From Schleiferiaceae bacterium (GTDB lineage Bacteria; Bacteroidota; Bacteroidia; Flavobacteriales; Schleiferiaceae): a DNA stretch of 64,000 nucleotides. The DNA lies in NCBI GenBank assembly GCA_051859825.1, contig JBHYFA010000001.1, positions 36,268-100,267 of the forward strand. The letters are read 5' to 3'. Both the position numbers and the translations under genes were made by a program. The notes beneath the pieces are model-generated. The model made no database searches and had not been told where the DNA came from. It saw only the letters and a program-made list of their open reading frames with translations. Positions 4,203 to 48,123 of the stretch are shown here, piece after piece (the first letter of the stretch is position 1; each line of letters opens with the position of its first letter).

Positions 4203-4349
4203 AGTAAAAACGATTAGATTAGTATAAAAGTCATCATTATTGAAAGCTTATCTCATAATGAAGTCTTAATGAAACGCAAAAAAACATAATATATTTTTTA
4301 GCTCACCATCGTTTCTTCAAAAATAGCGGTAAAATGACTTTATTCATAT

Positions 4350-4381
4350 CGCTGTCATCGGACTTTATAGACAGACATTAT
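4350..4381. repeat. REP/MITE-like repeat end in inverted orientation (GCTGTCATCGGACTTTATAGACAGACATTA)
   Basis: Reverse complement of the TAATGTCTGTCTATAAAGTCCGATGACAGC core. Directly follows the stop of the minus-strand 246-aa ORF. Confidence 0.5.
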
Positions 4382-5122
4382 TTATTCACGTCGTGCTTTC
4401 TTATCCTTCTTCCTCCGCTTCTTCGACTTCTTCTTTTTCTTACTTGAAGAAAAGGAATTTTGCAAATGAGTAAGCGGCTGATAAACGTTAAAATAAAGAG
4501 TCAATATAGTGTCATTATCCTCCGTGATTTCTGGTTCCTTTAAGGTCATCGCGTCAACCTGGCCGATCAAAGCTTGTCGCGAAATTTCAAGGTCGTACTG
4601 TTCGAGTAGCGTGTACTCATCCGAAACTCTATTAACCACAAAAGCCGATTCAATTTCGAGACCATCGCCACTTTCACTTATAATATCTAAAAATCGATAA
4701 AATAAATTTCCGTAAAAATGTGCGGTAATGGTATCGCCTAATTCATGATGAGCAATCATTAAATAATATAGGGCTTGAAGATTTACTGGATCATCGTCCC
4801 AAACCTTTTTGGCTGGACTAATTGCATTTTCCCACTCTTTTTCTCTTAAAAAAGACACACTCTTTCTTAAACCAGGGTCGCGAAAATAAGGTTTATAGTC
4901 TCCCGAATACGCCCATCCGTAGTACAAATGAACCATCTCTTGCTTGTGCAGCATTTCTTTGGAACGCATCTTTTTCACTAAGGATGGGTAATAAAGGTCG
5001 CTTTTTTTATCGGTAACCGCCGCTTCAATTGCAGCTAAATCGATGGAGGTAGGTACTTGGGCAAACAAACTATTTGCTATAAAAAAAAGCACCACAATTG
5101 CGAATAAAGTATTCTTGCTCAT
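4382..5122 (-). CDS. Hypothetical secreted protein with a lysine-rich C-terminal tail
   Basis: Signal peptide MSKNTLFAIVVLFFIANSLFAQ. C-terminus SSSKKKKKSKKRRKKDKKARRE. Possibly a DUF4919-like Bacteroidota family. Confidence 0.5.
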   Translation of the reverse strand: MSKNTLFAIVVLFFIANSLFAQVPTSIDLAAIEAAVTDKKSDLYYPSLVKKMRSKEMLHKQEMVHLYYGWAYSGDYKPYFRDPGLRKSVSFLREKEWENAISPAKKVWDDDPVNLQALYYLMIAHHELGDTITAHFYGNLFYRFLDIISESGDGLEIESAFVVNRVSDEYTLLEQYDLEISRQALIGQVDAMTLKEPEITEDNDTILTLYFNVYQPLTHLQNSFSSSKKKKKSKKRRKKDKKARRE

Positions 5123-21589: not shown

Positions 21590-21905
21590 TTCTAGCTAGT
21601 GACTGTCTATAAAGTAAAGAGTCTGCCTCAGAAAGTTCATAAGCAGGGCTTGCGAAGGTTGAAAAACAGTGAGTCCCGACAAGTCTTTGTCGGGATGACC
21701 TTTTTTCAACCGAGCATAACGCAGCTCTCGGACTTTAAAGACAGACACTAGTTAGAGTCTGTCCATAAAGTGCAAGTGGCTAGGCTAGAAAGTTCGAGAG
21801 CGAGGCTTGCGAAGGTTGAAAAACAGTGAGTTTACATTAGTAAATGACCTTTTTTTCAACCGAGCATAACGAAGCTATCGGACTTTATAGACAGACACTA
21901 GTTAA
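21590..21905. repeat. Tandem array (about 2.5 units of about 150 bp) of the full-length REP/MITE-like palindromic element
   Basis: Each unit carries terminal inverted repeats GTCTGTC(T/C)ATAAAGT...ACTTTA(T/A)AGACAGAC and a central hairpin (GGTTGAAAAACAGTGAGT...ACCTTTTTTCAACC). The last unit supplies the stop codon of the rluA-like gene. Confidence 0.7.
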
Positions 21906-23522: not shown

Positions 23523-24662
23523 ATGAAGCACTTCACTCCTTCAAAAAATAAAACGCCCATAACTATGTTAGGAAGGTTATTCCTCATCGCCCTAATAGGC
23601 TTGACAAGTATTTTCTCATCGTGCAACAACGAAGTACCCGTAAACGCTGAGTGGCAAGATATTGCCTATGTATATGGTATTCTAAATGCGGCGGCAGACA
23701 CCCAATTTGTGCGCATTGGCAAAGCTTTTCTCGGAGACGGCCCACCCTCAGAATTTGCGCAAATCCCTGATTCTATCTACTACGAAAATATCAATGTTTC
23801 AATGGAAGAACTCAGTGGAGACAGAGTAGATCGAAGTTTTTCTTTGGAAAAAATCAATCGCCCAGGACAATTGCAGCCAGGATTCTTTACTACAGAAGGA
23901 TTTCATCTGTATTACACCACCGAGCAACTCGACACTTCCAAAACCTACCGCCTTGTCATAGAAAAACCCGATGGTGGCCCAACAGTCACGGCCGAAACCC
24001 GCCTTACTTTTTGGAGAAGAAACCTGAACACGGGAAACGTAATTGAACCTTTCACCGATAGGTTAGCGTTTATTAATACATTTGGAGAACCAAATGTTGT
24101 TAGATTTGTATGGGAGAAAGCGTTCAACTCAGGTGCACACGAAGGTCGGCTCATATTCCGATACAAGGAGCAAAATCGCAGCAATCGAAATGACATAAAA
24201 ACCAAAACCATTGTTTATCAAGTTCCAGCAGCTGAACGAAGAGACGATATTTTAATTGAGATCAGTGATGCCAATTTCTACGGATTTATCGCTTCAAATA
24301 TCCAGCCCGACCCAAATGTGTTTCGCTACTTCGACACCATATTCTTCGATGCCATTGCCGGTGGCGACGATATGCGCTTATACGCTGAAATCAATAGACC
24401 TTCGGGCGGAATTGCCCAAGAAAGACCCACGTTCACAAATGTAGAAAACGGCGTTGGCCTCTTCTCAAGCATGGCCGAAACCAGAGCATTAATCAACGGT
24501 AGAGTTAAGCGGTTTATGCTAAATAACAACTCCTATAATGCCCTTGTAATGGACCTCTGCGACCTTAACTTCGTCAAACTATCCTTTACCGACTCTTGCT
24601 ATTGCGATGGTGGGGTGGTGCAGAGGATTGGGAATACTACCGGGAACTGCAACATTAATTAG
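23523..24662 (+). CDS. Hypothetical lipoprotein, possibly DUF4249-like
   Basis: Lipobox LTSIFSSC. Start placed at MKHF (23523) inside ORF 23457-24662. Lies upstream of the TonB-dependent receptor gene. Confidence 0.45.
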   Translation: MKHFTPSKNKTPITMLGRLFLIALIGLTSIFSSCNNEVPVNAEWQDIAYVYGILNAAADTQFVRIGKAFLGDGPPSEFAQIPDSIYYENINVSMEELSGDRVDRSFSLEKINRPGQLQPGFFTTEGFHLYYTTEQLDTSKTYRLVIEKPDGGPTVTAETRLTFWRRNLNTGNVIEPFTDRLAFINTFGEPNVVRFVWEKAFNSGAHEGRLIFRYKEQNRSNRNDIKTKTIVYQVPAAERRDDILIEISDANFYGFIASNIQPDPNVFRYFDTIFFDAIAGGDDMRLYAEINRPSGGIAQERPTFTNVENGVGLFSSMAETRALINGRVKRFMLNNNSYNALVMDLCDLNFVKLSFTDSCYCDGGVVQRIGNTTGNCNIN

Positions 24663-24724
24663 AGTCTGTCCATAAAGTCAAAGTGACTAGGCTATAAAGT
24701 CCGAGAGCTTCGTTATGCTCCGGC
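24660..24724. repeat. REP/MITE-like repeat copy (TAGAGTCTGTCCATAAAGTCAAAGTGACTAGGCTATAAAGTCCGAGAGCTTCGTTATGCTCCGGC)
   Basis: Carries both the left-end (GTCTGTCCATAAAGT) and right-end motifs. Its TAG is the stop codon of the upstream ORF. Confidence 0.6.
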
Positions 24725-24774
24725 TAAAACTTTACTAAATAGACACTTGCATTTATAAACCGTTTTTCATTAAG

Positions 24775-27325: not shown

Positions 27326-28216
27326 ATGAAGACGAACTTCCTACGCTCATTGTATACTCAAGTAAGCAAAAATAGCATTCGCGCAATAGCCATATTTTCT
27401 ATTGTTTTCTCCCTATCTTCGTGTGAAGATGTCATTGATGTAGAACTGGAGGAAGGCCCTCTACAATTGGTGGTAAACGGGAGAATCACCGATGAAGCAC
27501 CGGCATCGGTAACCCTTAGCACAACCGCTCCTTTCTTTGAATCAGGACCAACCCCGAGAGTTTCCGGAGCCATTGTTCAATTATTTGAAGATGACAATCC
27601 ACTGGAAGCCCTAACCGAAGATCCTTCTAATCCCGGAAACTATATTGGAACAACGCCTGCCGAAATAGGCAAATCATACCATATCGAGATTCAATTACCC
27701 GAATCAGCTAGTCATTTTCAAGAGACATTTTGGAAGTCTATTCCAGAAAGGGTTTTTCCAATTTTTGAAATTGATTCCGTGTATTTGACTTTCATTCGCA
27801 CCCCTCCGCTCCCCGTTGGTCTTTACCTAAATTTTCAATTTCTTCGTCCTTTTCCATTCCCCTCAGGTGCGGCGTACCGCATTCAGAGAGAACTCAACGA
27901 TAGTGCTTTTTTGCAAGATTTCCTCTTCATCGAAAGTGCCGACGACCTTGAGTCGTTTCGTTTCCGTCCTCTTATAAACCAACTTATTGAGCCTGGAGAT
28001 ACCATTGCGCTTACCTTCAGCTCAATTACCTTACGATATCTCGAATATTTGACGGTAGTGTTTCAGCAGCTCAATTCCGGCGGACTATTCGACCCTCCAC
28101 CAGCACCTATACGCGGAAATGTTCAGCGTCAGGGTGGTGACGAGCGCGTAGCTCTAGGGTATTTTCACGCTTCATCCATTCGGCGAGCGGGGCTGAGAAA
28201 AGAGGAGGACGAGTAA
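27326..28216 (+). CDS. DUF4249-family lipoprotein (partner of the TonB-dependent receptor)
   Basis: Lipobox LSSC followed by EDVIDVELEEGPLQLVVNGRITDE, typical of the DUF4249 N-terminus. Directly downstream of the receptor gene. Confidence 0.55.
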   Translation: MKTNFLRSLYTQVSKNSIRAIAIFSIVFSLSSCEDVIDVELEEGPLQLVVNGRITDEAPASVTLSTTAPFFESGPTPRVSGAIVQLFEDDNPLEALTEDPSNPGNYIGTTPAEIGKSYHIEIQLPESASHFQETFWKSIPERVFPIFEIDSVYLTFIRTPPLPVGLYLNFQFLRPFPFPSGAAYRIQRELNDSAFLQDFLFIESADDLESFRFRPLINQLIEPGDTIALTFSSITLRYLEYLTVVFQQLNSGGLFDPPPAPIRGNVQRQGGDERVALGYFHASSIRRAGLRKEEDE

Positions 28217-29217
28217 TTCTTCCCCGCATTTTGCAATTTTTCTGCTATTCTCATACGAAGTTTTGGAGGCCCTAGCACTTCGATTGCATCACCAAACCCG
28301 AGTATCAAACGCTCTAGTTCGAAGTTCAATTGAACATTAATGGTAATTATGATACTCCGGTTTTCAAATTCTTTTTGTAGTTCCTGAGTATGATGAAGGG
28401 GCTTGGTGAGCACGTATGGTGCATTGGAAGAATTTACTTTTAAAGTTACCTTCCGAACCCTTGAATTGGGTGTTACGGTAACACCATATACCTTGGCAAA
28501 ATGAGCATCAAGATCGAAGTCTTCTTCCAAATACGGCGTTTTGAAATCATAATCCAACGCTTCAATGCGGTCTAAGGCCAAATTATTGACGGGGTGGGAA
28601 GCTTGGCGTTTACCCAGCACAAACCATCGATTATTGAACTCCTTCAGTGCGAAGGGGTGAAACAAAAAGCTGCTGGATTCCCTAGCCACGAAAGAACGGT
28701 AGGTAACAACCAGCACAACCTTTTTGATGATGGCTTGATAAATTTCGTCTAGGTAATGAAGCCCCTTTAGTCTTTCGTTTTTGTCGAAGTGAATAACCTG
28801 TCGCGACTGGTTTTTCTCCGCGTAAATTTTATCCTCCAACCGCTGAACGATATCCGAAACATCGCTAAAAAGGGAAAAATCTTTAAACTGCTTGAGCATG
28901 GAAACCGCTTCAGTCAACGTGTTGATGTCGGTATCATTAAGTGGTGTATCCGTAATGCTAAAATCGTCGTCGGCATAGCGGTAATACTTACGTTCGTAAA
29001 CTTCGATGGGCGCATTGTATCCCAACTTTTCACTGCGCATCAACTGTATATCGAGCTGTACGGTGCGCTTGCTGATGGGCACTTTTTTTCCTTCAAACTC
29101 GTACAGCGCATCCGAACAGGCTTCAATCAAATCTTCCAACGTCCACCTTCTAAAGCGGTTTTGCAGGCACTTATCAATTGTTTTATAACGGATTAAGGCG
29201 TTCTTGTTTTGCGGCAT
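28165..29217 (-). CDS. WYL-domain transcriptional regulator (wHTH-WYL-WCX architecture)
   Basis: N-terminal winged HTH (ALIRYKTIDKCLQ...KRTVQLDIQLMR). Central WYL-like region (...LVVTYRSF...HPFALKEFNNRWFVLG). 350 aa. Divergent from rtcB. Confidence 0.6.
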   Translation of the reverse strand: MPQNKNALIRYKTIDKCLQNRFRRWTLEDLIEACSDALYEFEGKKVPISKRTVQLDIQLMRSEKLGYNAPIEVYERKYYRYADDDFSITDTPLNDTDINTLTEAVSMLKQFKDFSLFSDVSDIVQRLEDKIYAEKNQSRQVIHFDKNERLKGLHYLDEIYQAIIKKVVLVVTYRSFVARESSSFLFHPFALKEFNNRWFVLGKRQASHPVNNLALDRIEALDYDFKTPYLEEDFDLDAHFAKVYGVTVTPNSRVRKVTLKVNSSNAPYVLTKPLHHTQELQKEFENRSIIITINVQLNFELERLILGFGDAIEVLGPPKLRMRIAEKLQNAGKNYSSSSFLSPARRMDEA

Positions 29218-29316
29218 TGCTGTTTATTTTCCACAAAAAAACAACCCCACAAGAAACTACGCAAATAGATTGCGCAGTCGTTTTAAAATATTTGCCCAAT
29301 CAAAAAAACGAACGTT

Positions 29317-30726
29317 ATGAAAACGATTACCGGAAAAGATTTGCGAAACATTGGATGGGAAGAAAATGCCAGTTTGGGACAAGCACTTAAAATCATCGAG
29401 TGCAGTAAAGTGAACATGTCGCTTGATACGTTGACGTTGTTGTACCAAAACCCGGAAGATTTTGTCATCAACCCCGTTTACGGTGAAATGGCCGAAATGC
29501 TGATTGCACATCGCGAAAGCATAAAAGACGACATTATTCCCATAGCCGAATCAGGTGGAGAATACAAAAAGTACGGCGAAGAACACATTGAAGAAGGTGC
29601 TCGTAAACAAATGGAAGTGGCCATGCGCTTGCCGGTAACGCGTGCGGGCGCCCTTATGCCCGATGCGCATCAAGGTTACGGCTTGCCCATTGGTGGGGTT
29701 TTGGCAACCAATAACGCCGTTATACCCTTTGGTGTAGGGGTGGATATTGGGTGTAGAATGGCGTTATCGGTATTCGATATGCCGGAAGATGATTTTTATC
29801 TCAACCACGATAAATTCAAACGTGAACTCATCGCTCATACGCGCTTTGGCGCGGGCCACGGGTTTGTACGCAAGCATCGCAGCGAACACGAAATCCTCGA
29901 CCATAAATTGTTTGACGAAAATCACTTCGTAGGCAATTTAAAAGACAAAGCCTGGAGTCAACTTGGGTCTTCTGGTGGAGGGAATCACTTTGTGGAATTT
30001 GGTATTCTGGATTTTGCCGAAGACGATGCCGAATTGAACATCCCTAAAGGAAAATACGTAGCCTTGCTTACCCACTCCGGATCACGCGGGTTGGGGGCAA
30101 CCATTGCCGGACATTACACCAAGCTCGCTAAGGAAGTGTGTAAACTCCCCGACGAAGCCAAGAATCTCGCCTATTTGGATTTAAACTCCGAACTCGGTCA
30201 GGAGTACTGGGCAGCGATGAACTTGGCCGGCGATTATGCGTCGGCTTGTCACGAGATCATCCACCAAAAACTGACCAAAGCGCTGGGATTAATCCCGTTG
30301 GCAAAAGTGGAAAACCACCACAACTTCGCCTGGAAGGAAACCATCAACGGCGAGGAAGTGATTGTTCATCGCAAAGGCGCAACACCGGCAGCCAAGGGTG
30401 TTATGGGCATCATTCCCGGCAGCATGACCGCCCCCGGATTTTTGGTACGCGGAAAGGGTGAAGCAGAAGCCATCAATTCCGCTTCGCACGGTGCAGGCCG
30501 ACAAATGAGTCGAACTAAAGCCAAGAAGTCGGTAACCCGCACCGAGCTTAAGCAGGTACTAAAAGACCACGGCGTTACCCTCATCGGTGCCGGGTTAGAC
30601 GAAGCGCCAATGGCCTATAAAGACATCCATTTGGTGATGGAAGCCCAAAAGGATTTGGTCGATGTCGTTGCCAAGTTTAGTCCAAAAATGGTTCGCATGG
30701 CCGATGATGGTAGTCGTGAAGATTAG
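29317..30726 (+). CDS. rtcB: RNA-splicing ligase RtcB
   Basis: Metal/GTP-binding motifs DAHQGYGLPIGGV, GGGNHF, HRKGAT, SHGAGR (His nucleophile region). 469 aa. Confidence 0.9.
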   Translation: MKTITGKDLRNIGWEENASLGQALKIIECSKVNMSLDTLTLLYQNPEDFVINPVYGEMAEMLIAHRESIKDDIIPIAESGGEYKKYGEEHIEEGARKQMEVAMRLPVTRAGALMPDAHQGYGLPIGGVLATNNAVIPFGVGVDIGCRMALSVFDMPEDDFYLNHDKFKRELIAHTRFGAGHGFVRKHRSEHEILDHKLFDENHFVGNLKDKAWSQLGSSGGGNHFVEFGILDFAEDDAELNIPKGKYVALLTHSGSRGLGATIAGHYTKLAKEVCKLPDEAKNLAYLDLNSELGQEYWAAMNLAGDYASACHEIIHQKLTKALGLIPLAKVENHHNFAWKETINGEEVIVHRKGATPAAKGVMGIIPGSMTAPGFLVRGKGEAEAINSASHGAGRQMSRTKAKKSVTRTELKQVLKDHGVTLIGAGLDEAPMAYKDIHLVMEAQKDLVDVVAKFSPKMVRMADDGSRED

Positions 30727-30750
30727 GCAATCCATGCGACACCGTAAAAT

Positions 30751-30876
30751 CATAGTTGCTAGGCTAAAAATTTCGAGAGCAAGGCTTGCGAATGATTAAA
30801 AAGCGGAGTTTACGTTTGGTAAATGAGCATTTTTAAGCATTCGCGTAACGCAGCTATCGGAATTTTTAGACAGCAA
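30751..30876. repeat. Full-length variant of the REP/MITE-like element with a compensatory central hairpin
   Basis: TAGTTGCTAGGCTAAAAATTTCGAGAGC...GCGAATGATTAAAAA / TTTTTAAGCATTCGC...CAGCTATCGGAATTTTTAGACAGCAAC. The stem halves co-vary relative to the 21.6-kb copies. Starts 25 nt after the rtcB stop. Confidence 0.65.
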
Positions 30877-31011
30877 CAAATATTGAGGGAGGCTTGATGC
30901 GTGTTTCTGTATAGCACCATTGCCGTGTGCGCTCCACGTGGGTGGATTGCGCTTCACCGTTCACCTCCTCTTGATGGTTTTCGGTCGTTTTCCTCAAAAT
31001 GACCACCAAGC

Positions 31012-31110
31012 GCTATATGTCGTGGGTTCGATTCCCACCTGTGATTTTCACAGTAGCTCAGTTGGTTAGAGCAATAGTTTATGGCGGAGGTTCGAATCCT
31101 CCACGCAGTT
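31012..31110 (+). pseudogene. tRNA-derived fragments: X 3'-half (anticodon 3'-stem, variable loop, T-arm GTGGGTTCGATTCCCAC, acceptor), then X 5'-half (acceptor, D-arm TAGCTCAGTTGGTTAGAGC), fused to Y T-arm (GGAGGTTCGAATCCTCC) and acceptor
   Basis: Canonical D-arm and T-arm consensus on the + strand, but no complete cloverleaf. 31047-31053 pairs with 31039-31045, and 31103-31109 pairs with 31116-31122, so the 3' halves precede their cognate 5' halves. Confidence 0.4.
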
Positions 31111-31115
31111 GTAAA

Positions 31116-31190
31116 GTTGCGTTAGCTCAGTGGCAGAGCACTACACTGTTAATGTAGTTTGACTGGAGGTTGTATTCGCTCCTTAAACGA
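31116..31190 (+). tRNA. Degenerate tRNA-Asn(GTT)-like gene (probable pseudogene)
   Basis: Acceptor GTTGCGT. D-arm TAGCTCAGTGGCAGAGC. Intact anticodon stem-loop CTACA-CTGTTAA-TGTAG (anticodon GTT). The T-arm is corrupted (GGAGGTTGTATTCGCTCC, an apparent local inversion of the TTCGAAT loop) and no matching 3' acceptor follows. Confidence 0.35.
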
Positions 31191-31453
31191 ATACGCTTTT
31201 GAGAAACGCGTTGGATGTGGCCGGTTGCGGCAAATGGCACAAGTGGTCATTTGCACAACAGCCCAAATCCAACCAGCAAGGAAACCTCTGTTCGTCCAGA
31301 CGCGGCAAATCCTTGGGGTATGACAATGCTATGACTTGAAAAAGACCCGCAAGCATTTGCTGTGAAACGACCGCAAGCTTCCTTCCGTTGCGATGAAGGT
31401 GGCTTACATTCAATGCGTTTCTTTTTTTATTAACCCTTAAAACCTCAACGATT

Positions 31454-32548
31454 ATGAAAATTGTTACCATCAAAACCGCTCAGATTGGTTTACTTATTAG
31501 AAACCGTAAAGTTGATCGACTTCTTTACGAAGGCACCCACTTGACTTTGGGTTTGCACAAGGTAGAAATACACGAAACCCGCGAATTATTTATCTCCCAA
31601 ATCGACATCGACATCTTGTTGGAAAGCCCTTTAATGGCGAAGGCTTTAGAAATTGTTGACGTTCCCGAAAGTCACATCTGCATGGTGTTTAAAAAAGGCA
31701 ATTTGCACAACGTATTGCCCGAAGGGAAGTACGCCTTCTGGAAAGATAAACACCCTTTCAGCTTTCGCGTATTGAACACTGCCGGTATGGATATCCCTGC
31801 CGATCTTCCCCGTCATCAGTTGGAGCACTACCTCATGCAACCTTTTGTACGGAAGTTTAACGTGGCCAATGCGCATACCGGGGTGTTGTTTGTGGACGGG
31901 AAATTTCACAGCACTTTCAAATCAGGAAGCGTGTTTTTCTGGAACAACCGCACTTCCATGGAGATGCAAAGCGTTGACTTGCGTCGTCAGCATTTGGAAA
32001 TATCCGGGCAAGAATTGCTTACCAAGGACAAGGCCGGCATTCGGATCAACTTCTTTGTGCAATTCCGCGTGGTGGACATTGAAAAAGCCATCATTGACAA
32101 CAAGGATTTCCGCAATCAGTTGTACGTATTGATGCAGTTGGCTTTGCGTGCCTACATAGGCGGCTACAATCTCGACGAGTTGTTGAGCAAAAAAGACCGC
32201 ATTACCGACATGATATTGGAGGCCACCGCCGAGAAGATTGCTGCTTTAGGTATTGAAGTTTCCGACGCCGGTATTCGCGACATCATTTTGCCCGGCGACA
32301 TGAAGGAGATTATGAATCAGGTGTTGATTGCGGAGAAAAAGGCGCAGGCCAACAGCATTTTGCGTCGTGAAGAAACCGCATCCACCCGAAGCTTACTCAA
32401 CACCGCCAAGTTGATGCAAGACAACGACATGTTGTGGAAGCTCAAGGAGATGGAGTACGTGGAAAAAATATCCGAACGCATTGGCGAAATCACCATTTCC
32501 GGAAGGGGAAATGTAGTGAATGAGTTGAAGGAAATTTTTGTGAAGTAA
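31454..32548 (+). CDS. SPFH/band-7 (stomatin-prohibitin-like) domain protein with an N-terminal extension of about 170 aa
   Basis: C-terminal half has the SPFH fold pattern (TKDKAGIRINFFVQFRVVDIEKAI...ALRAYIGGYNLDELL...KIAALGIEV). 364 aa. Confidence 0.7.
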   Translation: MKIVTIKTAQIGLLIRNRKVDRLLYEGTHLTLGLHKVEIHETRELFISQIDIDILLESPLMAKALEIVDVPESHICMVFKKGNLHNVLPEGKYAFWKDKHPFSFRVLNTAGMDIPADLPRHQLEHYLMQPFVRKFNVANAHTGVLFVDGKFHSTFKSGSVFFWNNRTSMEMQSVDLRRQHLEISGQELLTKDKAGIRINFFVQFRVVDIEKAIIDNKDFRNQLYVLMQLALRAYIGGYNLDELLSKKDRITDMILEATAEKIAALGIEVSDAGIRDIILPGDMKEIMNQVLIAEKKAQANSILRREETASTRSLLNTAKLMQDNDMLWKLKEMEYVEKISERIGEITISGRGNVVNELKEIFVK

Positions 32549-40076: not shown

Positions 40077-40103
40077 AGTTTTATTTCAAAGATTAACATT
40101 ATT

Positions 40104-40140
40104 TAGTGTCTGTCTATTAAGTCCGATGACAGTGTTATGA
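40104..40140. repeat. REP/MITE-like repeat copy (TAGTGTCTGTCTATTAAGTCCGATGACAGTGTTATGAAG)
   Basis: Core motif shared with the copies at 4350 and 21597. Confidence 0.5.
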
Positions 40141-40260
40141 AGAAGTATAATTAACAGCCTTAAAAGTAGTAAACACAATTGATTGAATGGCGGTAAATAA
40201 AAATATTTTTTTATGATACTATTTTTTGTAAGTTTGCATTCTAACCCATTAATAATTAGC

Positions 40261-41457
40261 AAAATGAAAAATGTTTTACTTTTTTGTAGTTTTTCTTTCT
40301 CTTTTGGGCTTGCTGCGCAAATACCCTCTAGTCACTTTGAGTTACCCATTTTCCCAGATTCTGCAACTTCAATGTTATTTGAAGACAATGTCGGAGCATT
40401 GAGTCTGCCTGCACATGGCGGAAGTCAAGTTTATGATTACACTAATATTGTGGATGAATCTAGCTTTGGTAGCTATTACGAAGCATCAGATAACAATCCC
40501 AATTTTCCCAATGCGGATGCCATGCAAACTTACTCCTCCTTTTTAAGTACACTAGAAATTACCGGTAATCGAGCTTATTACAAAAAAGATCAAAACGCTT
40601 TGTATTATTTAGGCTTTGAAACTCCTGTAGGCTCGTATGAAATTGGCTCTGTTTCCATGCATCCGGAAGACTCAATATGGTTTGTTGGGTCGCACACCTA
40701 CCACGGAACGAATGTTCCAATAATTGAGTATCCAATTACTGTAGCTCCGCAGAATTCTTCCTGGGCAGCAAGTTATGATGAAATCACTGATTTTGAGATT
40801 ACAGTTACCATGGCGAATATCATTCAAGCCCCGGGGCAATTGAAACAAAGTGTTCAACAGCACGATACAGTGGTAGGATATGGAATACTCACTCTTCCAT
40901 CTACGGCAAACATTCCTTCAAACGGATACTTCACTAAATTAGTTCGAGAAACTGTCACCACGGTAGATAGTTTCTTTTTAGGTGGTCAACCTGCTCCGCC
41001 AGCGTTATTGGCTCAATTTAGCTTAAGTCAAGGCGAAGTAAATACTATCCATCGATATAAGTTTTTTGCTCACGACCCACTGCAGCCCAAAATGCGCTCA
41101 ACCTTGATGGTGTTAAATCTGAATTCTGCCGCAAACGCAGTAATTGGAGGAAGTTATGATTTGGATTTTTATTCAAGCGTGTCCGTTCAGAAGTTTGGCG
41201 AAGAATTTTCACCGGTAATATCTCCAAATCCAGCCGCTTCTCGCACTGCTTTACAATTTCAGAGACCTCTCGATCAAAATATTAAACTAGTGGTAATGGA
41301 TATGCACGCTAAGGTTGTGAAGGAGATTAACGGAAAAAGGGGTTCCGATGAAGTCACTATTGAAGTAGATGGTTTAGGTTCAGGCATGTACTTAGTGTAC
41401 GTGTACGATGAAGGAGGTGCGTTTCTTGCGAGCCGAAAACTCATCAAAAACGATTAG
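40261..41457 (+). CDS. Hypothetical secreted protein with a T9SS C-terminal sorting domain
   Basis: Start trimmed to MKNVLLF (signal peptide). C-terminus ISPNPAASRTALQF...GMYLVYVYDEGGAFLASRKLIK matches the T9SS CTD pattern. Confidence 0.6.
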   Translation, partial: KMKNVLLFCSFSFSFGLAAQIPSSHFELPIFPDSATSMLFEDNVGALSLPAHGGSQVYDYTNIVDESSFGSYYEASDNNPNFPNADAMQTYSSFLSTLEITGNRAYYKKDQNALYYLGFETPVGSYEIGSVSMHPEDSIWFVGSHTYHGTNVPIIEYPITVAPQNSSWAASYDEITDFEITVTMANIIQAPGQLKQSVQQHDTVVGYGILTLPSTANIPSNGYFTKLVRETVTTVDSFFLGGQPAPPALLAQFSLSQGEVNTIHRYKFFAHDPLQPKMRSTLMVLNLNSAANAVIGGSYDLDFYSSVSVQKFGEEFSPVISPNPAASRTALQFQRPLDQNIKLVVMDMHAKVVKEINGKRGSDEVTIEVDGLGSGMYLVYVYDEGGAFLASRKLIKND

Positions 41458-41485
41458 TGGCTGGCTAGAAAGTCCGGTTCTTCGC
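41455..41485. repeat. REP/MITE-like repeat copy (TAGTGGCTGGCTAGAAAGTCCGG...)
   Basis: Its TAG is the stop codon of the upstream T9SS gene. Truncated relative to the copies at 974 and 3526. Confidence 0.55.
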
Positions 41486-41545
41486 TAATTCATAAAGGCC
41501 ATTGCTTGAGATAGTAATGGCCTTTATGCAATAAGAATTATCGAA

Positions 41546-43663
41546 TTACTTTTCGATATTCACTTTGTAGGTATTCCTCACACCATTCATTTCAACCTTG
41601 AGTATATACATACCTGCTGCGAAATTGCTTAAATCCAGTTGATGTTGATTATTAGCATTTGGCCTAACGTGTTCGGAAAGCAGCGTCTTTCCGTTGAGAT
41701 CCGTAATGTCTAACTTTGCCGTTTCACCTATTGCCTCAAAAAATTCTACTGTTACTTTTCCTGATGATGGATTTGGAAATACATGTATAAAATTTTTCTG
41801 GGCATCCATGGTATTTACACTAACAAAGCATCCATGAAGAAGGTACGAAGGACATAATAGTAATGTGAGATGTGGCCGACTGAAGTTTCTAGAGAAAGAA
41901 AATCTGCTAAACCAATCACTTGAACCTAAATCGTACATGAGCGATTGATAAGGCGGCTCTGTTGTTCTATCATTCTTAACCATCACAGGAAACTGACCTG
42001 ATGAAGAGTATAGCTCGGCTACCAGCCAAAAGGCTGAATCTTTAATGGCGTGACTCCAAATTGGATTAGGGGTAGGATACTCGAAGGCAATCGAACCATT
42101 ATTTAAACCATAAGAGTCGAATATCATCTCGATATACTGATTGGTTATATCTGCTGCAGAAATGGTTTTTCGAGCGCTAAATAGAGGAGTATCATTTGTT
42201 AATAAATCATTATTCCGATATATTTTAAATTCTACTTCACCGCCAGCAATACTCTGGGGGGATAATCCAAGTCTTGCTCCAACAATTTCACCTCTAGAGC
42301 CTTCTTTTACTTCAAATCTCATAGCAATAGCGGATCCATCATCACCCAATTGGTTAGTTCCTATCGAGTTGTCAAATTTGTTAAAATGTAATCCAAGATT
42401 GTAGAACTGTCTTTCAAAGCTGAGCGTATCAGGAGCGTCAGTAACAGTATTGGGACTATTATCTGCGGCATCCAAACTATCGGATATTATTTTTACCACT
42501 ACGTCATATACGCCATTGGTAGTCGGCGACCAAGGTGACGTTTTCAACAGATTCGAATTTACAATTTGCCCCGGCGTTATTGTTCTTGGACTACTACTAA
42601 TAACAGATGAAAGCATTCCATTAGAATAAACTTCTGCTATAATTCGAACGTTGGTTTGAGTACTCGTACCAATGTTTCTAATATTCCCTCCAAATGAATA
42701 TCCACGTGTTTGCATATCTGTATAAGAGGGATACACGCCAGGGTTAACTATACCCCCACCAAAAAAGTTATACCAAACAGTTGGATTTTCAGCTTCAATA
42801 ACAAATGATTCAACATCTGAATTGAAGAGTGTTGACTTTTCAAACGCAAATAAGGTATTGGGCGCAGTTTTTATGGCAATATCATCTACCATCCAATAAT
42901 AGTATCCGTGGCTAGAAGAAGAAGTATCTATAACTCTATTTTTTCCGTCAAAAATGAGCTTAAAACGGGCGTTACTTTCTCCGCCTATGAATGTGCTTAC
43001 ATTAGCAATTGTTCGGTAATCTCGAGGTGTGATAGTATTAATTAAAAATTCATTCGCGACTTCAATGGTATCGGGGTAAGTGTTCCCTCCATCAGAACTA
43101 AAGGCAATAAAGCGTCTGGCGTTATAAGATCTGGCAAAACTAAATAACTCTATTATCACATCTGGGTGGTTAGATAGGTCTATAATTGGCGATTCTAAGG
43201 TTCCCATGTGAGGTGTAGGTGAAACCCCAGAGCCGGGGACATTGGTATTGCCATTATCCAAATAGTCTGAATCAAAAATCACGAAACCGTTGGCAGCAGT
43301 AGGAGAGGCGATAGGAAGGTTAGTTGGAGGTACATTATTAATTCCGGAGAAAAAACCTCGACTGCCAACTGAATTATCAGGAGAAGAATTTGGGCCACGA
43401 TATTCCCATAAAGCATTAGAATCAATAGTTATGCTATCCAAATAGCCAAGGTTATTCCATCCTGCTAAACCGTTAGAAAAGTCTTCAAACCAAATAGTGC
43501 TCGTTTCCGCACCATTAGTTTGAATAGGTTGGATATGGCTTCGTTTACTAACGTCTAAGTGGTGTTCTAAAGTTGCTTTTGCTTTACCTAGCTGAGTTGG
43601 TACAGATTGAGCAAACATTCCAACAGAAAGCAAGCAGAATGAAAAAGTATGGAGTTTTTTCAT
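41546..43663 (-). CDS. T9SS-CTD secreted protein, paralog 1 of a tandem triplet (MAM/choice-of-anchor-J-like conserved N-terminal domain)
   Basis: Signal peptide. Conserved block WFEDFSNGLAGWNN...WEYRGP...GSRGFFSGINN...NGFVIFDSDYLDNGNT...PHMGTLESPIIDLS...WMVDDIAIKTAPN. C-terminal T9SS CTD ending ...GMYILKVEMNGVRNTYKVNIEK. Confidence 0.65.
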   Translation of the reverse strand: MKKLHTFSFCLLSVGMFAQSVPTQLGKAKATLEHHLDVSKRSHIQPIQTNGAETSTIWFEDFSNGLAGWNNLGYLDSITIDSNALWEYRGPNSSPDNSVGSRGFFSGINNVPPTNLPIASPTAANGFVIFDSDYLDNGNTNVPGSGVSPTPHMGTLESPIIDLSNHPDVIIELFSFARSYNARRFIAFSSDGGNTYPDTIEVANEFLINTITPRDYRTIANVSTFIGGESNARFKLIFDGKNRVIDTSSSSHGYYYWMVDDIAIKTAPNTLFAFEKSTLFNSDVESFVIEAENPTVWYNFFGGGIVNPGVYPSYTDMQTRGYSFGGNIRNIGTSTQTNVRIIAEVYSNGMLSSVISSSPRTITPGQIVNSNLLKTSPWSPTTNGVYDVVVKIISDSLDAADNSPNTVTDAPDTLSFERQFYNLGLHFNKFDNSIGTNQLGDDGSAIAMRFEVKEGSRGEIVGARLGLSPQSIAGGEVEFKIYRNNDLLTNDTPLFSARKTISAADITNQYIEMIFDSYGLNNGSIAFEYPTPNPIWSHAIKDSAFWLVAELYSSSGQFPVMVKNDRTTEPPYQSLMYDLGSSDWFSRFSFSRNFSRPHLTLLLCPSYLLHGCFVSVNTMDAQKNFIHVFPNPSSGKVTVEFFEAIGETAKLDITDLNGKTLLSEHVRPNANNQHQLDLSNFAAGMYILKVEMNGVRNTYKVNIEK

Positions 43664-43733
43664 AACCTAATTGATAGACATTGTTTATACAACTTCATTT
43701 GTGCGATAAATATACATTGTTTCTTCTTAAGTT

Positions 43734-45902
43734 TTACACTCGAAAAAAATAAAGGCCATTACTATAGAAAGCAATGGCCTTTAGGACATAAGAAGGTTTA
43801 TCGACGTAGGTGTCGATATTCACTGAGTGGGTGTGGATTGCTCCATCAATTTCCACGCTAAGGATGTACATTCCCGAAGCGAGGTGCCCAAGTTCCATTT
43901 GGTGGTGGGTACTATTGATGTTGCGTGCGGTTTCTGTTTGAACAACTTTACCGCTTAGATCGGTTACTCGTAATATAGCTGACGAGCCTTTTACATCATT
44001 AAACTCTAAAAGTAATCTGCCCGTTGTAGGGTTGGGATAGTAGCGAACATTACTTTTACTTGCATCAATTTCAGAAACACTTAAGTTGCATAGAGAAGCG
44101 GAAGAGCAAGTAACAAGTCTTAAATGAGGTCGTGCAAAATTTCTAGAACCGGTATAGCGGCTAAACCAGTTGCCAGAGTTTGAGTTAAACATCAACGATT
44201 GAAATGGTGATGCGGTTGTACGATCATTTCTTACCATCAGAGGAAACTGGTTATTATTTGAAGTAAATTCAGCTACTAACCAAAAAGCGGAATCTTGGAA
44301 AGCGGTAACCGGTGTAGGGGTTGGATATTCCATATCTACATGTCCAGAATTTGTAGCAGGATTGTAGAAATCAACTTCAACAAAACCTTGCGATATATCG
44401 GCAGCTGTAATTGTCTTACTTGCCACAGCGATAGGGAATCCTCCTGATAGATCAAGGTTTCTAAAGATCTGGAATTCTAAGGTTGCTCCTGCTTGAGTGA
44501 GGGCTGATAAGCCTAGTCTTGCGGCGCTCACCTGATCACGTGATCCTTCTACAGGCTCGAAACGAATAGCCATTTTTGACCCATCTGCTCCAAGCTGATT
44601 GGTTCCAAGCGCATTATTAAAGCGGTTGAAATCGTGCCCGAATAAATTATCCGTTACATTTATAAACACGGTATCTGGTCGTCCATCAATAGAATTAGGC
44701 CCATTTTGAGATGCGGTTAGGCTATCGGAAAGCACTTTAAACACGCAGCCAAAAAGTCCCTTCTGGGTAGGGTTCCAAAAATTTGTCTCTAAAACAGCAG
44801 CTGTTGCTATGTCACCAGATGCAAGTAATGGTACTGCTGGGCTTTGCAGAGTGGTTACCAAAGTTCCACCTTGGTATATTTCAACTGCCAAACTCACATT
44901 CGTTTGTGGTAATGCTCCAATGTTTCTGACGTTGGAATTAAAGCTAAAGCCTCGTTCCTGACGCAAAGTAGTAATAGGATACACACCTGGTGGAACGGTA
45001 CCTCCTCCAAAAAAGTTATACCAAACCATCGGATTATCGGCTTTTACATCAAAGAGTTCAATGGGATTGCCATTTGCATCAGTAGCTTCTTGAAAAGAGA
45101 ATAGGGTATTAGGTGCGGTTTTGATAGCAATATCGTCAACCATCCAGAAGTATAAGCCAGGATTAGCGGTTGCGCTTCTTGGGTTTCTTCCGTCAAAAAC
45201 CAGTTTAATACGTGCATTACTTTGACCTCCTATGAAAGCACTAACGTTTGCAAGTGTCCGAAAATCTCGGGGAGTTGCGGTATTTACTGGAAATTGAGGT
45301 GCAACCCTTATGGAGTCTGGGTAGGTGGTTCCACCATCTGAACTAAAAGCAACGTAGAAGAAAGAGTTGAACATGCGTGCGTAGCTATATAACTCAAGAA
45401 CTACCTCCGGATGACCAGATAAATTGATAATAGGCGATTCCAATGTGCCAATGTGTGGCGCCGGAGCACTGCCTGCTCCTACTGTACTCGTATTACCATT
45501 GTCGAGGTAATCAGAATCAAAAATCACGAAGCCATTCGAAGCCGAAGGTGAAAGTATGGGGTTGTTGGTGGGGGTTGCGTTATTTACTCCCGAGTAAAAA
45601 CCTCTACTTCCTTGGGAAACGTCGGGATTAGTATTGGGCCCACGATACTCCCAAACTGCGTTGGCGTTTGGGGCACCTGTACCAGTAAAGCCCGCGTTTG
45701 TCCATCCAGATAGTCCATTAGAAAAATCTTCTGACCAAATGGGCGTTTCCTTTCCATCGACGAAAAGAGGGCTTTCATTTCGGAGATTATCGGTATCGTA
45801 GTTTAATTCAGGCACATCAGGCATGGTATGAACAGATACCGGAGATTGTGCTATGGCAACGGCACTAAAGCTCAACGCCATTCCAAGGTAGATTTTTTTC
45901 AT
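43734..45902 (-). CDS. T9SS-CTD secreted protein, paralog 2, with a 26-aa C-terminal extension caused by loss of the stop codon
   Basis: Same conserved N-terminal block and CTD as paralogs 1 and 3. The CTD ends ...HTHSVNID, then reads on (TYVDKPSYVLKAIAFYSNGLYFFRV) through the terminator hairpin. Confidence 0.65.
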   Translation of the reverse strand: MKKIYLGMALSFSAVAIAQSPVSVHTMPDVPELNYDTDNLRNESPLFVDGKETPIWSEDFSNGLSGWTNAGFTGTGAPNANAVWEYRGPNTNPDVSQGSRGFYSGVNNATPTNNPILSPSASNGFVIFDSDYLDNGNTSTVGAGSAPAPHIGTLESPIINLSGHPEVVLELYSYARMFNSFFYVAFSSDGGTTYPDSIRVAPQFPVNTATPRDFRTLANVSAFIGGQSNARIKLVFDGRNPRSATANPGLYFWMVDDIAIKTAPNTLFSFQEATDANGNPIELFDVKADNPMVWYNFFGGGTVPPGVYPITTLRQERGFSFNSNVRNIGALPQTNVSLAVEIYQGGTLVTTLQSPAVPLLASGDIATAAVLETNFWNPTQKGLFGCVFKVLSDSLTASQNGPNSIDGRPDTVFINVTDNLFGHDFNRFNNALGTNQLGADGSKMAIRFEPVEGSRDQVSAARLGLSALTQAGATLEFQIFRNLDLSGGFPIAVASKTITAADISQGFVEVDFYNPATNSGHVDMEYPTPTPVTAFQDSAFWLVAEFTSNNNQFPLMVRNDRTTASPFQSLMFNSNSGNWFSRYTGSRNFARPHLRLVTCSSASLCNLSVSEIDASKSNVRYYPNPTTGRLLLEFNDVKGSSAILRVTDLSGKVVQTETARNINSTHHQMELGHLASGMYILSVEIDGAIHTHSVNIDTYVDKPSYVLKAIAFYSNGLYFFRV
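43750..43782 (-). terminator. Terminator hairpin (AAAGGCCATTgctttctatagtAATGGCCTTT plus T-run) now lying inside the paralog-2 reading frame
   Basis: Same hairpin as at 41492-41528 after paralog 1. Followed on the minus strand by TTTTTTT. Confidence 0.45.
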
Positions 45903-45982
45903 AGTAGTGGGTTTAAAAAATCAAAACGATTTAACGGTATCAAATGTATGGATTTTTTCAATAGAAAAATAATTTGTGCAAA

Positions 45983-46010
45983 AAAAAACTGCCTCAATGA
46001 GGCAGCTTTT
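45983..46010 (-). terminator. Rho-independent terminator of paralog 3 (AAAGCTGCCTCattgaGGCAGTTTTTTTTT on the minus strand)
   Basis: 8-bp GC-rich stem plus T9 run, 25 nt after the gene's stop. Confidence 0.6.
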
Positions 46011-46032
46011 AATTCGTTGTATCGAAAATTAA

Positions 46033-48123
46033 TTATTTTTCGATGCTCACTTTATAGGTGTTAACCTTTCCACCAATCTCTACACTTAAAATGTAGATGC
46101 CAGAAGCCAAGTGTCCGAGATCCATTTGGTGATGTCCAACAGTATGAGCGAACTCGCTGTGAACAACTTTACCACTTAAATCAGTAACACGAAGATTAGC
46201 TCTATTGGCAGCAGGGTTTTCAAAATCCAGTACTAGACGACCTGTGGTTGGGTTAGGGTAGTAACGAATTCCAGCAAAATTAGCGTCAACAGTCTCAACG
46301 TTAAAGTTACATGCTTCTGCAGAAGAACAGGTAAACAAACGAAGATGAGGACGAGCAAAGTTACGTGAACCTGCAAAAGAACTAAACCAAGAACCTTGAT
46401 CAGGGATAAACATAAGAGACTGCAAAGGAGATGGAGTCGTTGCATCATTACGAATAGCAACGGGGAACTGAGCGTTCTGTGAAGTAAACTCAGCAACTAC
46501 CCAGAAGGCAGAATCTTGGAAATTGGTCACAGGGGTAGGGGTTGGATACTCCATATCGATTTGACCAAAGTTGGTAACAGGATTATAAAAGTCTGCATCA
46601 ACAAAACCCTGAGAAATATCGGCAGCTGTAAGCGTTTTAGAAGCAACGGCAATTGGGAAACCACCAGCTAAGTCAAGGTTACGGAAAACTTTGAACTCAA
46701 CTACACCACCAGCAACGGAAGCAGCAGAAAGACCTAGACGAACACCTAATGCTTGGTCTCTTGAACCTTCTTTGATTTCGTAACGTACAGCAACAGCAGA
46801 ACCATCATTACCTAAGTTATTAGTACCAATTGCATTATTGAAACGCATAAAGTCATGACCAAAGAACTCATCACCAATATTAAAGAATACCGTATCAGGA
46901 CGTGCAGTAATGTTATTAGGGCCATTGTTCGAGGCTGTTAAATCAGATGAAATAACCTTGAAAACACATGCATGAAGACCCTTTTGTGTAGGTGTCCAGA
47001 AGTTGGTTTCCATAATGCTTGCTGGAGCGATGTCTAACACAGGCACAAGTGGAGTAGTGGGAGAAGAAAGCGTAGTTTCTAAAGCACCACCGCGATAAAT
47101 TTCCACTACAAGACCAACGTTTGATTGTGGCGTTGCACCAATATTTCTAATGTTAGCGTTAAATGCAATCGCTCTTGTTTGACGTAGAGTAGTAATAGGG
47201 TAAACTCCGGGAGGAACTGTTCCTCCGCCAAAGAAATTATACCAAACAACAGGATGATTTGCCAACACATCAAATACAGGGGTTGGATCACCAGCAGCAT
47301 TCACAAAAGGCTCGAAGGAGAAGAGTACGTTTGGAGCTGGTTTAATAGCGATATCATCAACCATCCAGAAGTAGTAACCAGGAGCACTTGCAGAATTCAA
47401 TGTGCTATTTCCATCAAAAATCAATTTTATTTTTACGTTGCTTTCACCTCCAACAAAATTACTAATGTTAGCAACAGTGCGGAAATCACGAGGAGTTGCG
47501 CCATTAACACCTAATGCTGAAGCAATTCTGATTGAATCAGGGTAAGTGGTACCACCATCCTTACTGAAGGCAACATAGAAGCTTGAGTTAAATGTACGAG
47601 CATAGCTATATAGCTCAATAATTACTTGAGGGTGTGAAGCTAAGTTAATCGTTGGTGACTCCAAGGTTCCGATATGAGGAGCTTCTGAAGCACCTGCACC
47701 AAAGGTCGAGGTATTATCATTATCCAAATAGTCAGAATCAAAGATAACAAAACCGTTGTCTTTAGTTGGAGAAGCAATAGGGAAATTACTTGGTGTTGGA
47801 TTATTCACACCTGAGAAAAAACCACGACTACCTTGTGAAGTATCGGGGTTCGTGTTAGGCCCACGATATTCCCACTGAGCATTTTGGTCAGGAGCACCTG
47901 TGCCAGTAAAACCAGCATTTGTCCAGCCGGTTAAACCGTTGGCAAAATCCTCTGACCAGATGGGCGTTTCTGCGCCATCAACAAAAATAGGCGATTCATA
48001 AGTGCGCATTGATACACCATCAAACACCTCAAGTACTGGTGTTGCTTCAGGTGCATTAACAGGAGCCTGCGCGAAAACAGAACCAGTGGCAAGCATCGCT
48101 GCAATTACATAAATTCTTTTCAT
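46033..48123 (-). CDS. T9SS-CTD secreted protein, paralog 3 of the tandem triplet
   Basis: About 70% identical to paralog 2 across the N-terminal block (PIWSEDFANGLTGWTNAGFTGTGAP...HIGTLESPTINLASHP...). CTD ends ...YKVSIEK. Confidence 0.65.
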   Translation of the reverse strand: MKRIYVIAAMLATGSVFAQAPVNAPEATPVLEVFDGVSMRTYESPIFVDGAETPIWSEDFANGLTGWTNAGFTGTGAPDQNAQWEYRGPNTNPDTSQGSRGFFSGVNNPTPSNFPIASPTKDNGFVIFDSDYLDNDNTSTFGAGASEAPHIGTLESPTINLASHPQVIIELYSYARTFNSSFYVAFSKDGGTTYPDSIRIASALGVNGATPRDFRTVANISNFVGGESNVKIKLIFDGNSTLNSASAPGYYFWMVDDIAIKPAPNVLFSFEPFVNAAGDPTPVFDVLANHPVVWYNFFGGGTVPPGVYPITTLRQTRAIAFNANIRNIGATPQSNVGLVVEIYRGGALETTLSSPTTPLVPVLDIAPASIMETNFWTPTQKGLHACVFKVISSDLTASNNGPNNITARPDTVFFNIGDEFFGHDFMRFNNAIGTNNLGNDGSAVAVRYEIKEGSRDQALGVRLGLSAASVAGGVVEFKVFRNLDLAGGFPIAVASKTLTAADISQGFVDADFYNPVTNFGQIDMEYPTPTPVTNFQDSAFWVVAEFTSQNAQFPVAIRNDATTPSPLQSLMFIPDQGSWFSSFAGSRNFARPHLRLFTCSSAEACNFNVETVDANFAGIRYYPNPTTGRLVLDFENPAANRANLRVTDLSGKVVHSEFAHTVGHHQMDLGHLASGIYILSVEIGGKVNTYKVSIEK

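Follow-up and report, generated by a model that had tools for sequence, protein, structure and literature searches.

A probably mobile repeat family found at stop codons in Bacteroidota and Desulfobacterales, with a hairpin maintained by matched base changes

The DNA analyzed here is a 64,000-nucleotide stretch (the window) of contig JBHYFA010000001.1 from a Schleiferiaceae bacterium (assembly GCA_051859825.1, positions 36,268 to 100,267 of the forward strand). It contains the rtcB gene (29317-30726), whose stop codon TAG (30724-30726) overlaps the first base of a short repeated element, termed copy c. The span 30751-30876, to which an earlier note on this DNA had drawn attention, is the hairpin of this copy, while the whole inserted element extends from approximately 30726 to 30877. 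Two other full copies, a and b, lie in tandem at 21.6 kb, and in total the window holds three full copies and at least four decayed copies (Table 1). The covariance model (CM) of the family, described below, matches the window copies on the plus strand with 90 to 124 bits, against only 24 to 35 bits for the reverse complement. Copy a is flanked by TAGCTA (21593-21598) and TAGTTA (21749-21754), and copy b has an exact TAGTTA on each side (21749-21754 and 21899-21904); the last base of copy b lies within the stop codon of a minus-strand pseudouridine synthase gene (21898-21900). The list of open reading frames (ORFs) of the window contains none of ≥60 amino acids (aa) confined to copy a, b, or c.

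Table 1. Copies and fragments of the repeat in the window and component parts of copy c
Feature	Position	Strand	Basis and remarks
Copy c, whole inserted element	30726-30877	+	CM match 30751-30887, 124 bits, E 1.7e-36
Copy c, decayed left terminal unit (unit1), including the rtcB stop	30724-30752	+	Compared with family consensus TAGTGTCTGTCCATTTAGTC
Copy c, 5' arm of outer and basal stem (unit2 plus TTCGAGAGC)	30754-30780	+	Pairs with 30853-30877; helices 1 and 2 co-vary family-wide
Copy c, conserved 5' junction	30781-30789	+	AAGGCT loop, then UGC paired with GCG 30843-30845; invariant in A1
Copy c, 5' half of central stem (the stem of the earlier note)	30790-30802	+	Helix 4; double changes at 12/12 pairs
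Copy c, apical hairpin	30803-30829	+	GC/GC, tandem G.A/A.G, G.U, UUUAC/GUAAA, 5-nt loop
Copy c, 3' half of central stem and GCG partner of the junction helix	30830-30845	+	Sequence, fold, covariation
Copy c, conserved 3' junction (TAACGCA) and 3' arm of basal/outer stem (GCTATCGGAATTTTTAGACAGCAAC)	30846-30877	+	Sequence, fold
Copy a	21599-21748	+	CM 90.3 bits; longer apical hairpin GTCCCGACAAGTCTTTGTCGGGAT
Copy b, in tandem with copy a	21755-21898	+	CM 121.2 bits
Decayed, internally deleted copy	24652-24750	-	CM 19.1 bits, E 0.0035; stop TAG of DUF4249 gene (24660-24662) is the terminal TAG of the repeat
Decayed short copy	966-1052	-	CM 15.6 bits, E 0.046; stop TAG of mutY-like gene (974-976) is the terminal TAG of the repeat
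Right-arm-only fragment	3526-3575	-	Repeat family D9, inverted pairs I2 and I4; stop TAG of gldD (3526-3528) is the terminal TAG
Right-arm fragment abutting the stop of a minus-strand DUF4919 gene (4382-4384)	4330-4388	+	Weak: CM 8.9 bits, E 6.3; families D11, I5
Decayed copy	40096-40180	-	Weak: CM 12.4 bits, E 0.46; repeat families D9, I5, I8
Terminal-unit fragment; first triplet is the stop TAG (41455-41457) of a gene for a T9SS-sorted protein	41455-41480	-	Family D9

As read from the window sequence, the left half of the central stem of copy c, GCGAATGATTAAAAA (30788-30802), pairs with the right half, TTTTTAAGCATTCGC (30830-30844), at 14 of 15 positions; the single exception is an A30795.G30837 mismatch, and the mutual complementarity claimed for the two halves is therefore not perfect. 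The equivalent halves of the 21.6-kb copies, GCGAAGGTTGAAAAA and TTTTTCAACCGAGC, pair only over the inner 10 bp. Within this shared 10-bp stem, two positions differ by a G-C to U-A change from the 21.6-kb copies to copy c, with both sides altered and pairing preserved, and one position differs by a U-A to A.G change, with both sides altered and pairing lost. In the right arm of copy c, TTCGC takes the place of GAGC, and the GAA/GA internal loop thereby becomes a run of Watson-Crick pairs. Folded as RNA, the 126-nt hairpin reaches −49.9 kcal/mol, compared with −25.7 ± 3.2 kcal/mol for shuffled sequences (z = −7.5), and folding of the copy c hairpin as DNA gives z = −8.1 relative to shuffles. 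The 21.6-kb type resembles copies in L031 and L005, and the 30.75-kb type resembles those in L072, L076, and L018 (metagenome-assembled genomes [MAGs] of Cryomorphaceae). Since both window subfamilies have relatives in Cryomorphaceae MAGs, the difference between their stems is a difference between lineages of the repeat family.

Further copies were collected by scanning 185,579 species genomes for GGCTTGCGAA-N40-70-TAACGNNGCTNTCGGA, a pattern in which the junction (23 core bases) is fixed and the stems are free. The scan returned 76 loci, from Saprospiraceae/Lewinella/Phaeodactylibacter, Cryomorphaceae/Flavobacteriales, Chitinophagales, and five different Desulfobacterales MAGs, and the repeat is often present in multiple copies within one genome. 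A CM made from 68 copies and spanning 137 positions was applied to these loci (∼8 kb each) and to the window, yielding 95 copies in 77 sources. The presence of the family in two phyla is real, as the gene beside one Desulfobacterales copy has its nearest homologues in Desulfobacterales, Desulfosarcinaceae, and Desulfonema. No copies were found in viral contigs or PLSDB plasmids. A divergent subfamily (GTTCATTATCAAGGCGCACGCGGG ... AAACGCCGAGAATGAAC) lies in tandem with a typical copy at L057 (4199-4400 and 4561-4696) and has an unchanged architecture. Its basal stem is altered from GUUCGAGAGC/GCUAUCGGAC to GUUCAUUAUC/GAGAAUGAAC, with the purine-purine mismatch staying in place, and the 3-bp junction helix, for which UG, UA, and CG variants are seen elsewhere, is CAC/GUG at 4561-4696. 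Both junction and basal stem thus differ in a compensated way, indicating that the family is broader than the search pattern captured.

Matched changes in the two arms preserve pairing within the molecule over the full length of the hairpin, and this holds between subfamilies, inside single genomes, and at one orthologous locus. When a plain MAFFT alignment was given to RNAalifold, 17 of the 27 pairs that it predicted showed double changes. A 43-pair structure was then scored on two alignments, one model-based (CM) and one from MAFFT only (structure-blind), with 500 shuffles of each. Paired cells amounted to 89.7% in the CM alignment and 87.6% in the MAFFT-only alignment; with the partners slid by 1 to 3 columns, these values were 31 to 43% and 33 to 45%, respectively. 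Double compensatory changes occurred at 36 of the 43 pairs in the former and 31 in the latter. Doubly changed cells numbered 505 in the CM alignment (155 ± 9 in shuffles) and 294 in the MAFFT-only alignment (106 ± 7.5 in shuffles), and in neither case did any of the 500 shuffles reach the observed value. Some positions of helix 4, the central stem, show all six standard pair types, and the apical stem alternates among UUUAC/GUAAA, CCCGC/GCGGG, and GCGUAC/GUACGC across copies. The earlier note had proposed that the two stem halves co-varied and that the fold, and not only the sequence, is under selection, and had named a lack of covariation in a larger set of copies as the refuting outcome. Covariation in the larger set is clear; the first proposal is upheld by the two compensated pairs seen locally and by all 12 helix-4 pairs family-wide, and the second by covariation across the family.

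The orthologous locus is that of the Cryomorphaceae MAGs L018 and L073, in which the copies share a flanking protein (95.6% identical) and the same putative downstream tRNA gene. The two copies differ by 14 substitutions; among these are three double changes that are compensated and a single change from C-G to U.G. The simulated probability of at least three compensated doubles is about 4e-4. In a Desulfobacterales histidine kinase operon, the element is 96 to 98% identical, compared with ∼80% for synonymous-type third positions of the adjacent gene. This test is only suggestive, because L084 and L085, which have a 100% identical histidine kinase gene, begin to diverge inside the repeat and are unrelated downstream (L084 from ∼2530 and L085 from ∼2820), which points to an assembly chimera or recombination. 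The repeat is probably an assembly or recombination breakpoint in this pair, which is a caveat for inference from MAGs. At the L018 and L073 locus (2172-2260 and 1300-1390, respectively), ∼10 nt separate the right end of the repeat from the 5' end of a tRNA gene-like sequence, and a further right-arm fragment lies directly upstream of the full copy.

The element measures ∼150 to 175 nt and begins with a terminal unit of ∼20 nt, which is followed by a short spacer, a second direct unit that opens the hairpin, the hairpin itself, and an inverted closing unit. The junction within the hairpin is asymmetric and conserved, with AAGGCUUGCGAA on the 5' side and GAGCRUAACGCAGC on the 3' side; the remaining parts of the hairpin are the variable stem, to which the stem discussed above for copy c belongs, and an apical hairpin in which tandem G.A pairs occur. 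Of 20 positions in the left unit, TAGTGTCTGTCCATTTAGTC, 16 are complementary to the right end, GACTATAAAGACAGACACTA, and terminal inverted repeats are therefore present. Desulfobacterales copies have the same architecture with a different terminal sequence and an equivalent inverted repeat, GACGRT...AYCGTC. Bacteroidota and Desulfobacterales alike retain the asymmetric junction, along with three G.U pairs that are fixed and the G.A mismatches.

Both groups show direct duplications at the element borders. In Bacteroidota the flanks take the form C-TA-NN-TA-[G...C]-TA-NN-TA-G, with TANNTA as the form of the duplication. In 22 of 31 well-preserved copies, the two flanks have the same dinucleotide NN (mean of 4.6 and maximum of 11 with shuffled partners), and among the 22 copies with a nonpalindromic NN there are 16 direct matches and no reverse-complement matches. 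Desulfobacterales copies are flanked by direct repeats of 6 to 7 nt (e.g., CATTCAA, ACTATT, and AAGAAA), and an exact 6-mer is common to both flanks in 5 of 13 copies, compared with 0.96 expected (P of about 0.001). An empty site was found in L081 and L083, Schleiferiaceae whose RtcB is 76% identical: the ∼150-nt element is missing from the spacer between rtcB and the downstream noncoding RNA, and the rtcB stop TAA is followed, after ∼10 nt, by the same conserved RNA region. The duplications and the empty site indicate that the element is inserted DNA. The equivalent comparison at L001 and L065 was uninformative, as the sequence around the stop codons is too diverged. In strain L078, with an RtcB that is 99% identical, a single copy is present where the window has the tandem copies a and b. 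Small size, lack of an ORF, terminal inverted repeats, target duplication, many dispersed copies, and differences in presence or absence are the features of MITEs (miniature inverted-repeat transposable elements), and we consider it probable that copy c is a member of a nonautonomous, MITE-like mobile repeat family whose fold is conserved.

The target is a short, TA-rich, roughly palindromic site that is often supplied by a stop codon, and a stop is regained on insertion. Seven genes of the window have their stops in the terminal TAG or TAA of a repeat or fragment (974, 3526, 4382 [minus strand], 21898 [minus strand], 24660, 30724, and 41455). Among 80 pattern matches in the loci plus the window, ∼30 have an opposite-strand ORF that stops at +15 or +19 from the right arm; the offset of +15 corresponds to TA of the duplication plus the G of the element, and that of +19 to TAA within the duplication. 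The right-hand neighbor converges on the element in 57 of 82 cases (42 of these within 30 nt) and is on the plus strand in 25, and a same-strand gene ends at the left end in only ∼10 cases. In the Desulfobacterales operon of L033, the element separates the histidine kinase gene from its response regulator gene; the TGA stop of the former is part of the duplicated TTGAATG, and the ribosome-binding site of the next gene comes after the second TTGAATG. Two ideas on this placement were discarded. A link between orientation and replication direction was rejected on the basis of L026 and L061, each of which holds two opposite copies within 4 kb, and a selenocysteine insertion sequence (SECIS)-like or stop-codon read-through signal was dropped after the sequences were read, since the hosts are unrelated housekeeping genes and the stops are TAA, TAG, and TGA alike.

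Several observations weigh against a mobile family with a conserved fold. Only the central NN varies in the Bacteroidota duplication, leaving its length ambiguous at 2 or 6 bp. The ends of copy c itself are decayed, with no clear duplication, and the single copy of L078 looks like a chimera of a and b, such that unequal crossover could equally explain the difference from the window. The ∼8-kb loci, the 64-kb window, plasmids, and viral contigs yielded no autonomous partner and no transposase with matching ends. The right end faces a gene stop four times as often as the left, for which a palindromic target gives no explanation. Conservation of the core across phyla is due in part to the collection method, because the search pattern fixed its 23 bases, and many of the source genomes are MAGs, where repeats may be misassembled. 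Searches for mobility genes near the copies were also negative: an all-against-all BLASTP of 750 ORFs from all loci revealed no recurrent protein beside the copies, Pfam and NCBIfam searches of the ORFs between the inverted fragments at 974-4384 and 40104-41457 revealed only housekeeping genes (mutY, ssb, corC, and gldD), and an 11-mer scan for solo terminal units gave mostly chance-level matches. Information on ISDol1 did not point to a transposase family either.

With regard to what the fold does, it may well be kept because a DNA foldback is needed for propagation, an explanation that we hold to be just short of probable; that it is kept because the transcribed hairpin acts in mRNA 3' ends is possible but rather less to be expected, and we lean slightly toward a DNA-level role in propagation over an RNA one. 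A stronger claim is that the element is primarily a structured RNA, either a cis-acting element of 3' untranslated regions (stabilizing, terminating, or directing mRNA processing) or a small RNA, which spreads or persists because it is useful. The very strong covariation in both alignments, the tandem G.A motifs, the three G.U pairs fixed across the family, and the greater stability of the plus-type strand (on average by 8.8 kcal/mol and in 86 of 95 copies) would all suit such an RNA, as would copies placed directly after stop codons inside transcription units, e.g., the histidine kinase/response regulator operon, with its high conservation relative to adjacent synonymous-type sites. Transcription is also on record for other MITEs, namely, bcr1, ERIC, and Correia (PMC3184786). 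However, G.U is hardly more frequent than A.C outside the three fixed sites (119 versus 86 cells), and the constraint is thus close to plain Watson-Crick complementarity on both strands, unlike that on a typical RNA family; moreover, in ∼70% of copies the strand with the more stable fold runs antisense to the neighboring gene, so that read-through would mostly yield the weaker fold. At the gathering score, Rfam 15 has no match to the repeat in the window or in four copy-bearing loci, and with E values of up to 10 the only match overlapping the element in 30650-31500 is a meaningless one to MIR1888 (E 1.2). No Bacteroidetes-type TAnnTTTG promoter motif was seen on either strand of the consensus, which was inspected by eye rather than computed. 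Decayed and truncated copies are common, and the duplications and the empty site mark inserted DNA. A primarily RNA element is accordingly unlikely, and the functional structured RNA suggested in the earlier note is not supported, given the missing Rfam match, the mixed orientation, and the scarce excess of G.U over A.C.

It is also conceivable that no selection acts on the fold and that the matched changes are a mutational by-product, arising from replication template switching in a quasipalindrome or from gene conversion between copies. The near-equal use of the G.U and A.C mismatches on the two strands would be expected from such a process, three double changes among 14 substitutions at a locus with a 95.6% identical flanking protein are fast for stepwise compensation, and the chimeric-looking copy of L078 suggests recombination between copies. 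Templated correction should nevertheless erase asymmetries, and the junction loops, bulges, G.A mismatch, and three G.U pairs persist in both groups, while the arms never turn into perfect palindromes; we regard this explanation as improbable. Still more doubtful is the notion that the arms are no more than long terminal inverted repeats to which one transposase binds in double-stranded form, with co-evolving binding sites and no hairpin formed. The outermost units do act as inverted repeats, and the second direct unit on the left recalls ends that bind several transposase molecules, but complementarity extends up to an apical loop of 4 to 8 nt, the two arms have different junction sequences, a difference that is itself conserved, and the central stems differ within a genome and between orthologues yet remain complementary, too fast and too varied a change for protein specificity. 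Equally remote is mobilization of single-stranded DNA by a hairpin-recognizing HUH/Y1 enzyme, as for IS200/IS605-derived PATE or for REP/REPIN via RAYT. A conserved hairpin with fixed mismatches and bulges offers possible recognition features, the copies lie at gene 3' ends as REPs do, and tandem arrays occur; however, the ends read TAGTG...CACTA and lack a GTAG or CGTC head, the ∼8-kb loci contain neither a Y1/RAYT gene nor another recurrent ORF, and the opposite orientations within a few kilobases in L026 and L061 make orientation independent of replication direction. Terminal inverted repeats and variable direct duplications are present, and these, with no Y1 transposase gene nearby, contradict the IS200/IS605-like transposition offered in the earlier note as its second option.

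Copies of the element insert into TA-rich targets shaped as a short palindrome (CTANNTAG), very often a stop codon, which is restored as TA plus G or as the TAA within the duplication; they amplify, form tandems, and decay. For the movement itself we propose that a trans-acting transposase, probably of the DDE type, would bind the terminal units, and a DNA foldback (an extruded or single-stranded hairpin) may bring the two ends together for propagation. The core is near identical in Bacteroidota and Desulfobacterales, and the termini and stems have wholly turned over. It is a more speculative idea, and one that we think doubtful, that the asymmetric core of ∼25 nt per arm is a functional module (a protein-binding or catalytic RNA, or a folded-DNA site for an undescribed structure-specific recombinase) and that the family represents a new class of stop-codon-targeting, stop-restoring, fold-dependent mobile elements.

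The closest functional analogues of the family are bcr1, ERIC/IRU, and Correia, for all of which accounts of folding and of compensatory changes exist (PMC3184786). bcr1 of the Bacillus cereus group is a MITE of ∼155 bp with a long stem-loop that carries compensatory changes (Klevan 2007; Kristoffersen 2011; reviewed in PMC3184786). It is similar in its size, lack of an ORF, short flanking direct repeats, strain-variable distribution, and a fold kept by compensatory changes, but it has no sequence similarity to the present family, generates a 5-bp duplication, and is restricted to one group of Firmicutes, whereas the present family occurs in two phyla, inserts at stop codons, and carries two left terminal units but a single right one. 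ERIC/IRU (127 bp, Enterobacteria) and Correia/NEMIS (Neisseria) are co-transcribed with their neighbors and have orientation-dependent effects on mRNA (PMC3184786, PMC2229807). They, too, are imperfect palindromic, intergenic, MITE-like repeats that duplicate TA-containing targets, but their sequences and hosts are different. The duplication in ERIC and Correia is TA only. We know of no report that either systematically restores stops or shares an asymmetric core across phyla.

Elements of the IS200/IS605 type insert 3' of a fixed tetra- or pentanucleotide. REP/REPIN (RAYT) and PATE resemble the present family as multicopy hairpins at gene 3' ends; REPIN arms co-vary, and structure rather than sequence is recognized. 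Unlike the present family, they lack terminal inverted repeats and target duplications and have a GTAG/CGTC head or a fixed target tetranucleotide. The REP head tetranucleotide is given as GTAG or CGTC in PMC3733652. Integron attC sites are likewise imperfect palindromes (60 to 140 nt) that lie directly after a stop codon and in many cases overlap it, with conserved ends, a variable but structurally conserved center, and a folding strand antisense to the gene. The attC core sites are RYYYAAC ... GTTRRRY and stand in cassette arrays next to intI. In contrast, the ends of the present family are TAGTGTCTG.../...CAGACACTA, with no RYYYAAC/GTTRRRY boxes, and the element inserts without a gene and is scattered by housekeeping genes (mutY, gldD, the panB operon, and rtcB) rather than in cassette arrays. 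A literature search by sequence strings and by topic returned general MITE and REP reviews only and no account of this family, which is apparently undescribed. Its stop-codon target, the two left versus one right terminal units, and the junction shared across phyla are unusual for MITE-like repeats.

The family offers a clean example of how selection acts on nucleic acid folding within a mobile repeat. Abundant in marine Bacteroidota (Saprospiraceae and Cryomorphaceae/Schleiferiaceae) and found also in Desulfobacterales, it alters the final codon and 3' flank of many housekeeping genes, in some cases within operons. In practice, the repeat will confuse RNA motif discovery, break or misjoin metagenome assemblies, and shift annotated stop codons. 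A fold required for mobility would point to a structure-reading transposition pathway; a fold acting in mRNA would make the repeat a widespread 3'-end element of phyla with poorly known posttranscriptional control.

Some copies in Flavobacteriales MAG28/29 and a Saprospiraceae MAG carry small GC-rich hairpins, CCTGCC...GGCAGG (∼19 to 20 nt), within the junction loops or outer stem, as in L019 (7140-7158 and 7218-7236). Such hairpins occur also in L002, L022, L024, L017, L021, L063, and L067 and may be a second, tiny palindromic insert nested in the repeat.

Downstream of rtcB and copy c lies a Y-RNA-like, tRNA-like region (30890-31200, plus strand), with a focus at 30992-31100, 31054-31102, and 31125-31157. 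It gives a subthreshold match to YrlA (RF02553; 49.4 bits versus a gathering score of 69, E 6e-10) and two partial tRNA-like matches, and ARAGORN called no tRNA there. These tRNA-like pieces belong to a separate RNA downstream of rtcB and not to the repeat. The region is strongly conserved in the Schleiferiaceae relatives with a 76% identical RtcB, and no Ro/Rsr gene is found beside it among the annotated ORFs. Upstream of rtcB, and divergently transcribed, is a WYL/WCX regulator gene (28165-29217, minus strand). Between the two lies an 84-aa ORF (29257-29511, minus strand), the equivalent of which in the near-identical strain L078 (9698-9952) has a SocA_Panacea domain match in precomputed annotation; it may be an antitoxin-like module in the rtcB locus.

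Elsewhere in the window, 41546-48000 (minus strand) contains three tandem paralogous genes of ∼2.2 kb with 60 to 75% DNA identity, listed as direct-repeat families D1 to D10. The gene at 41546-43663, the only one of the three that was scanned, encodes a C-terminal sorting domain of the type IX secretion system (T9SS), and near-identical terminator hairpins lie between the tandem paralogues (41490-41527 and 43749-43786).

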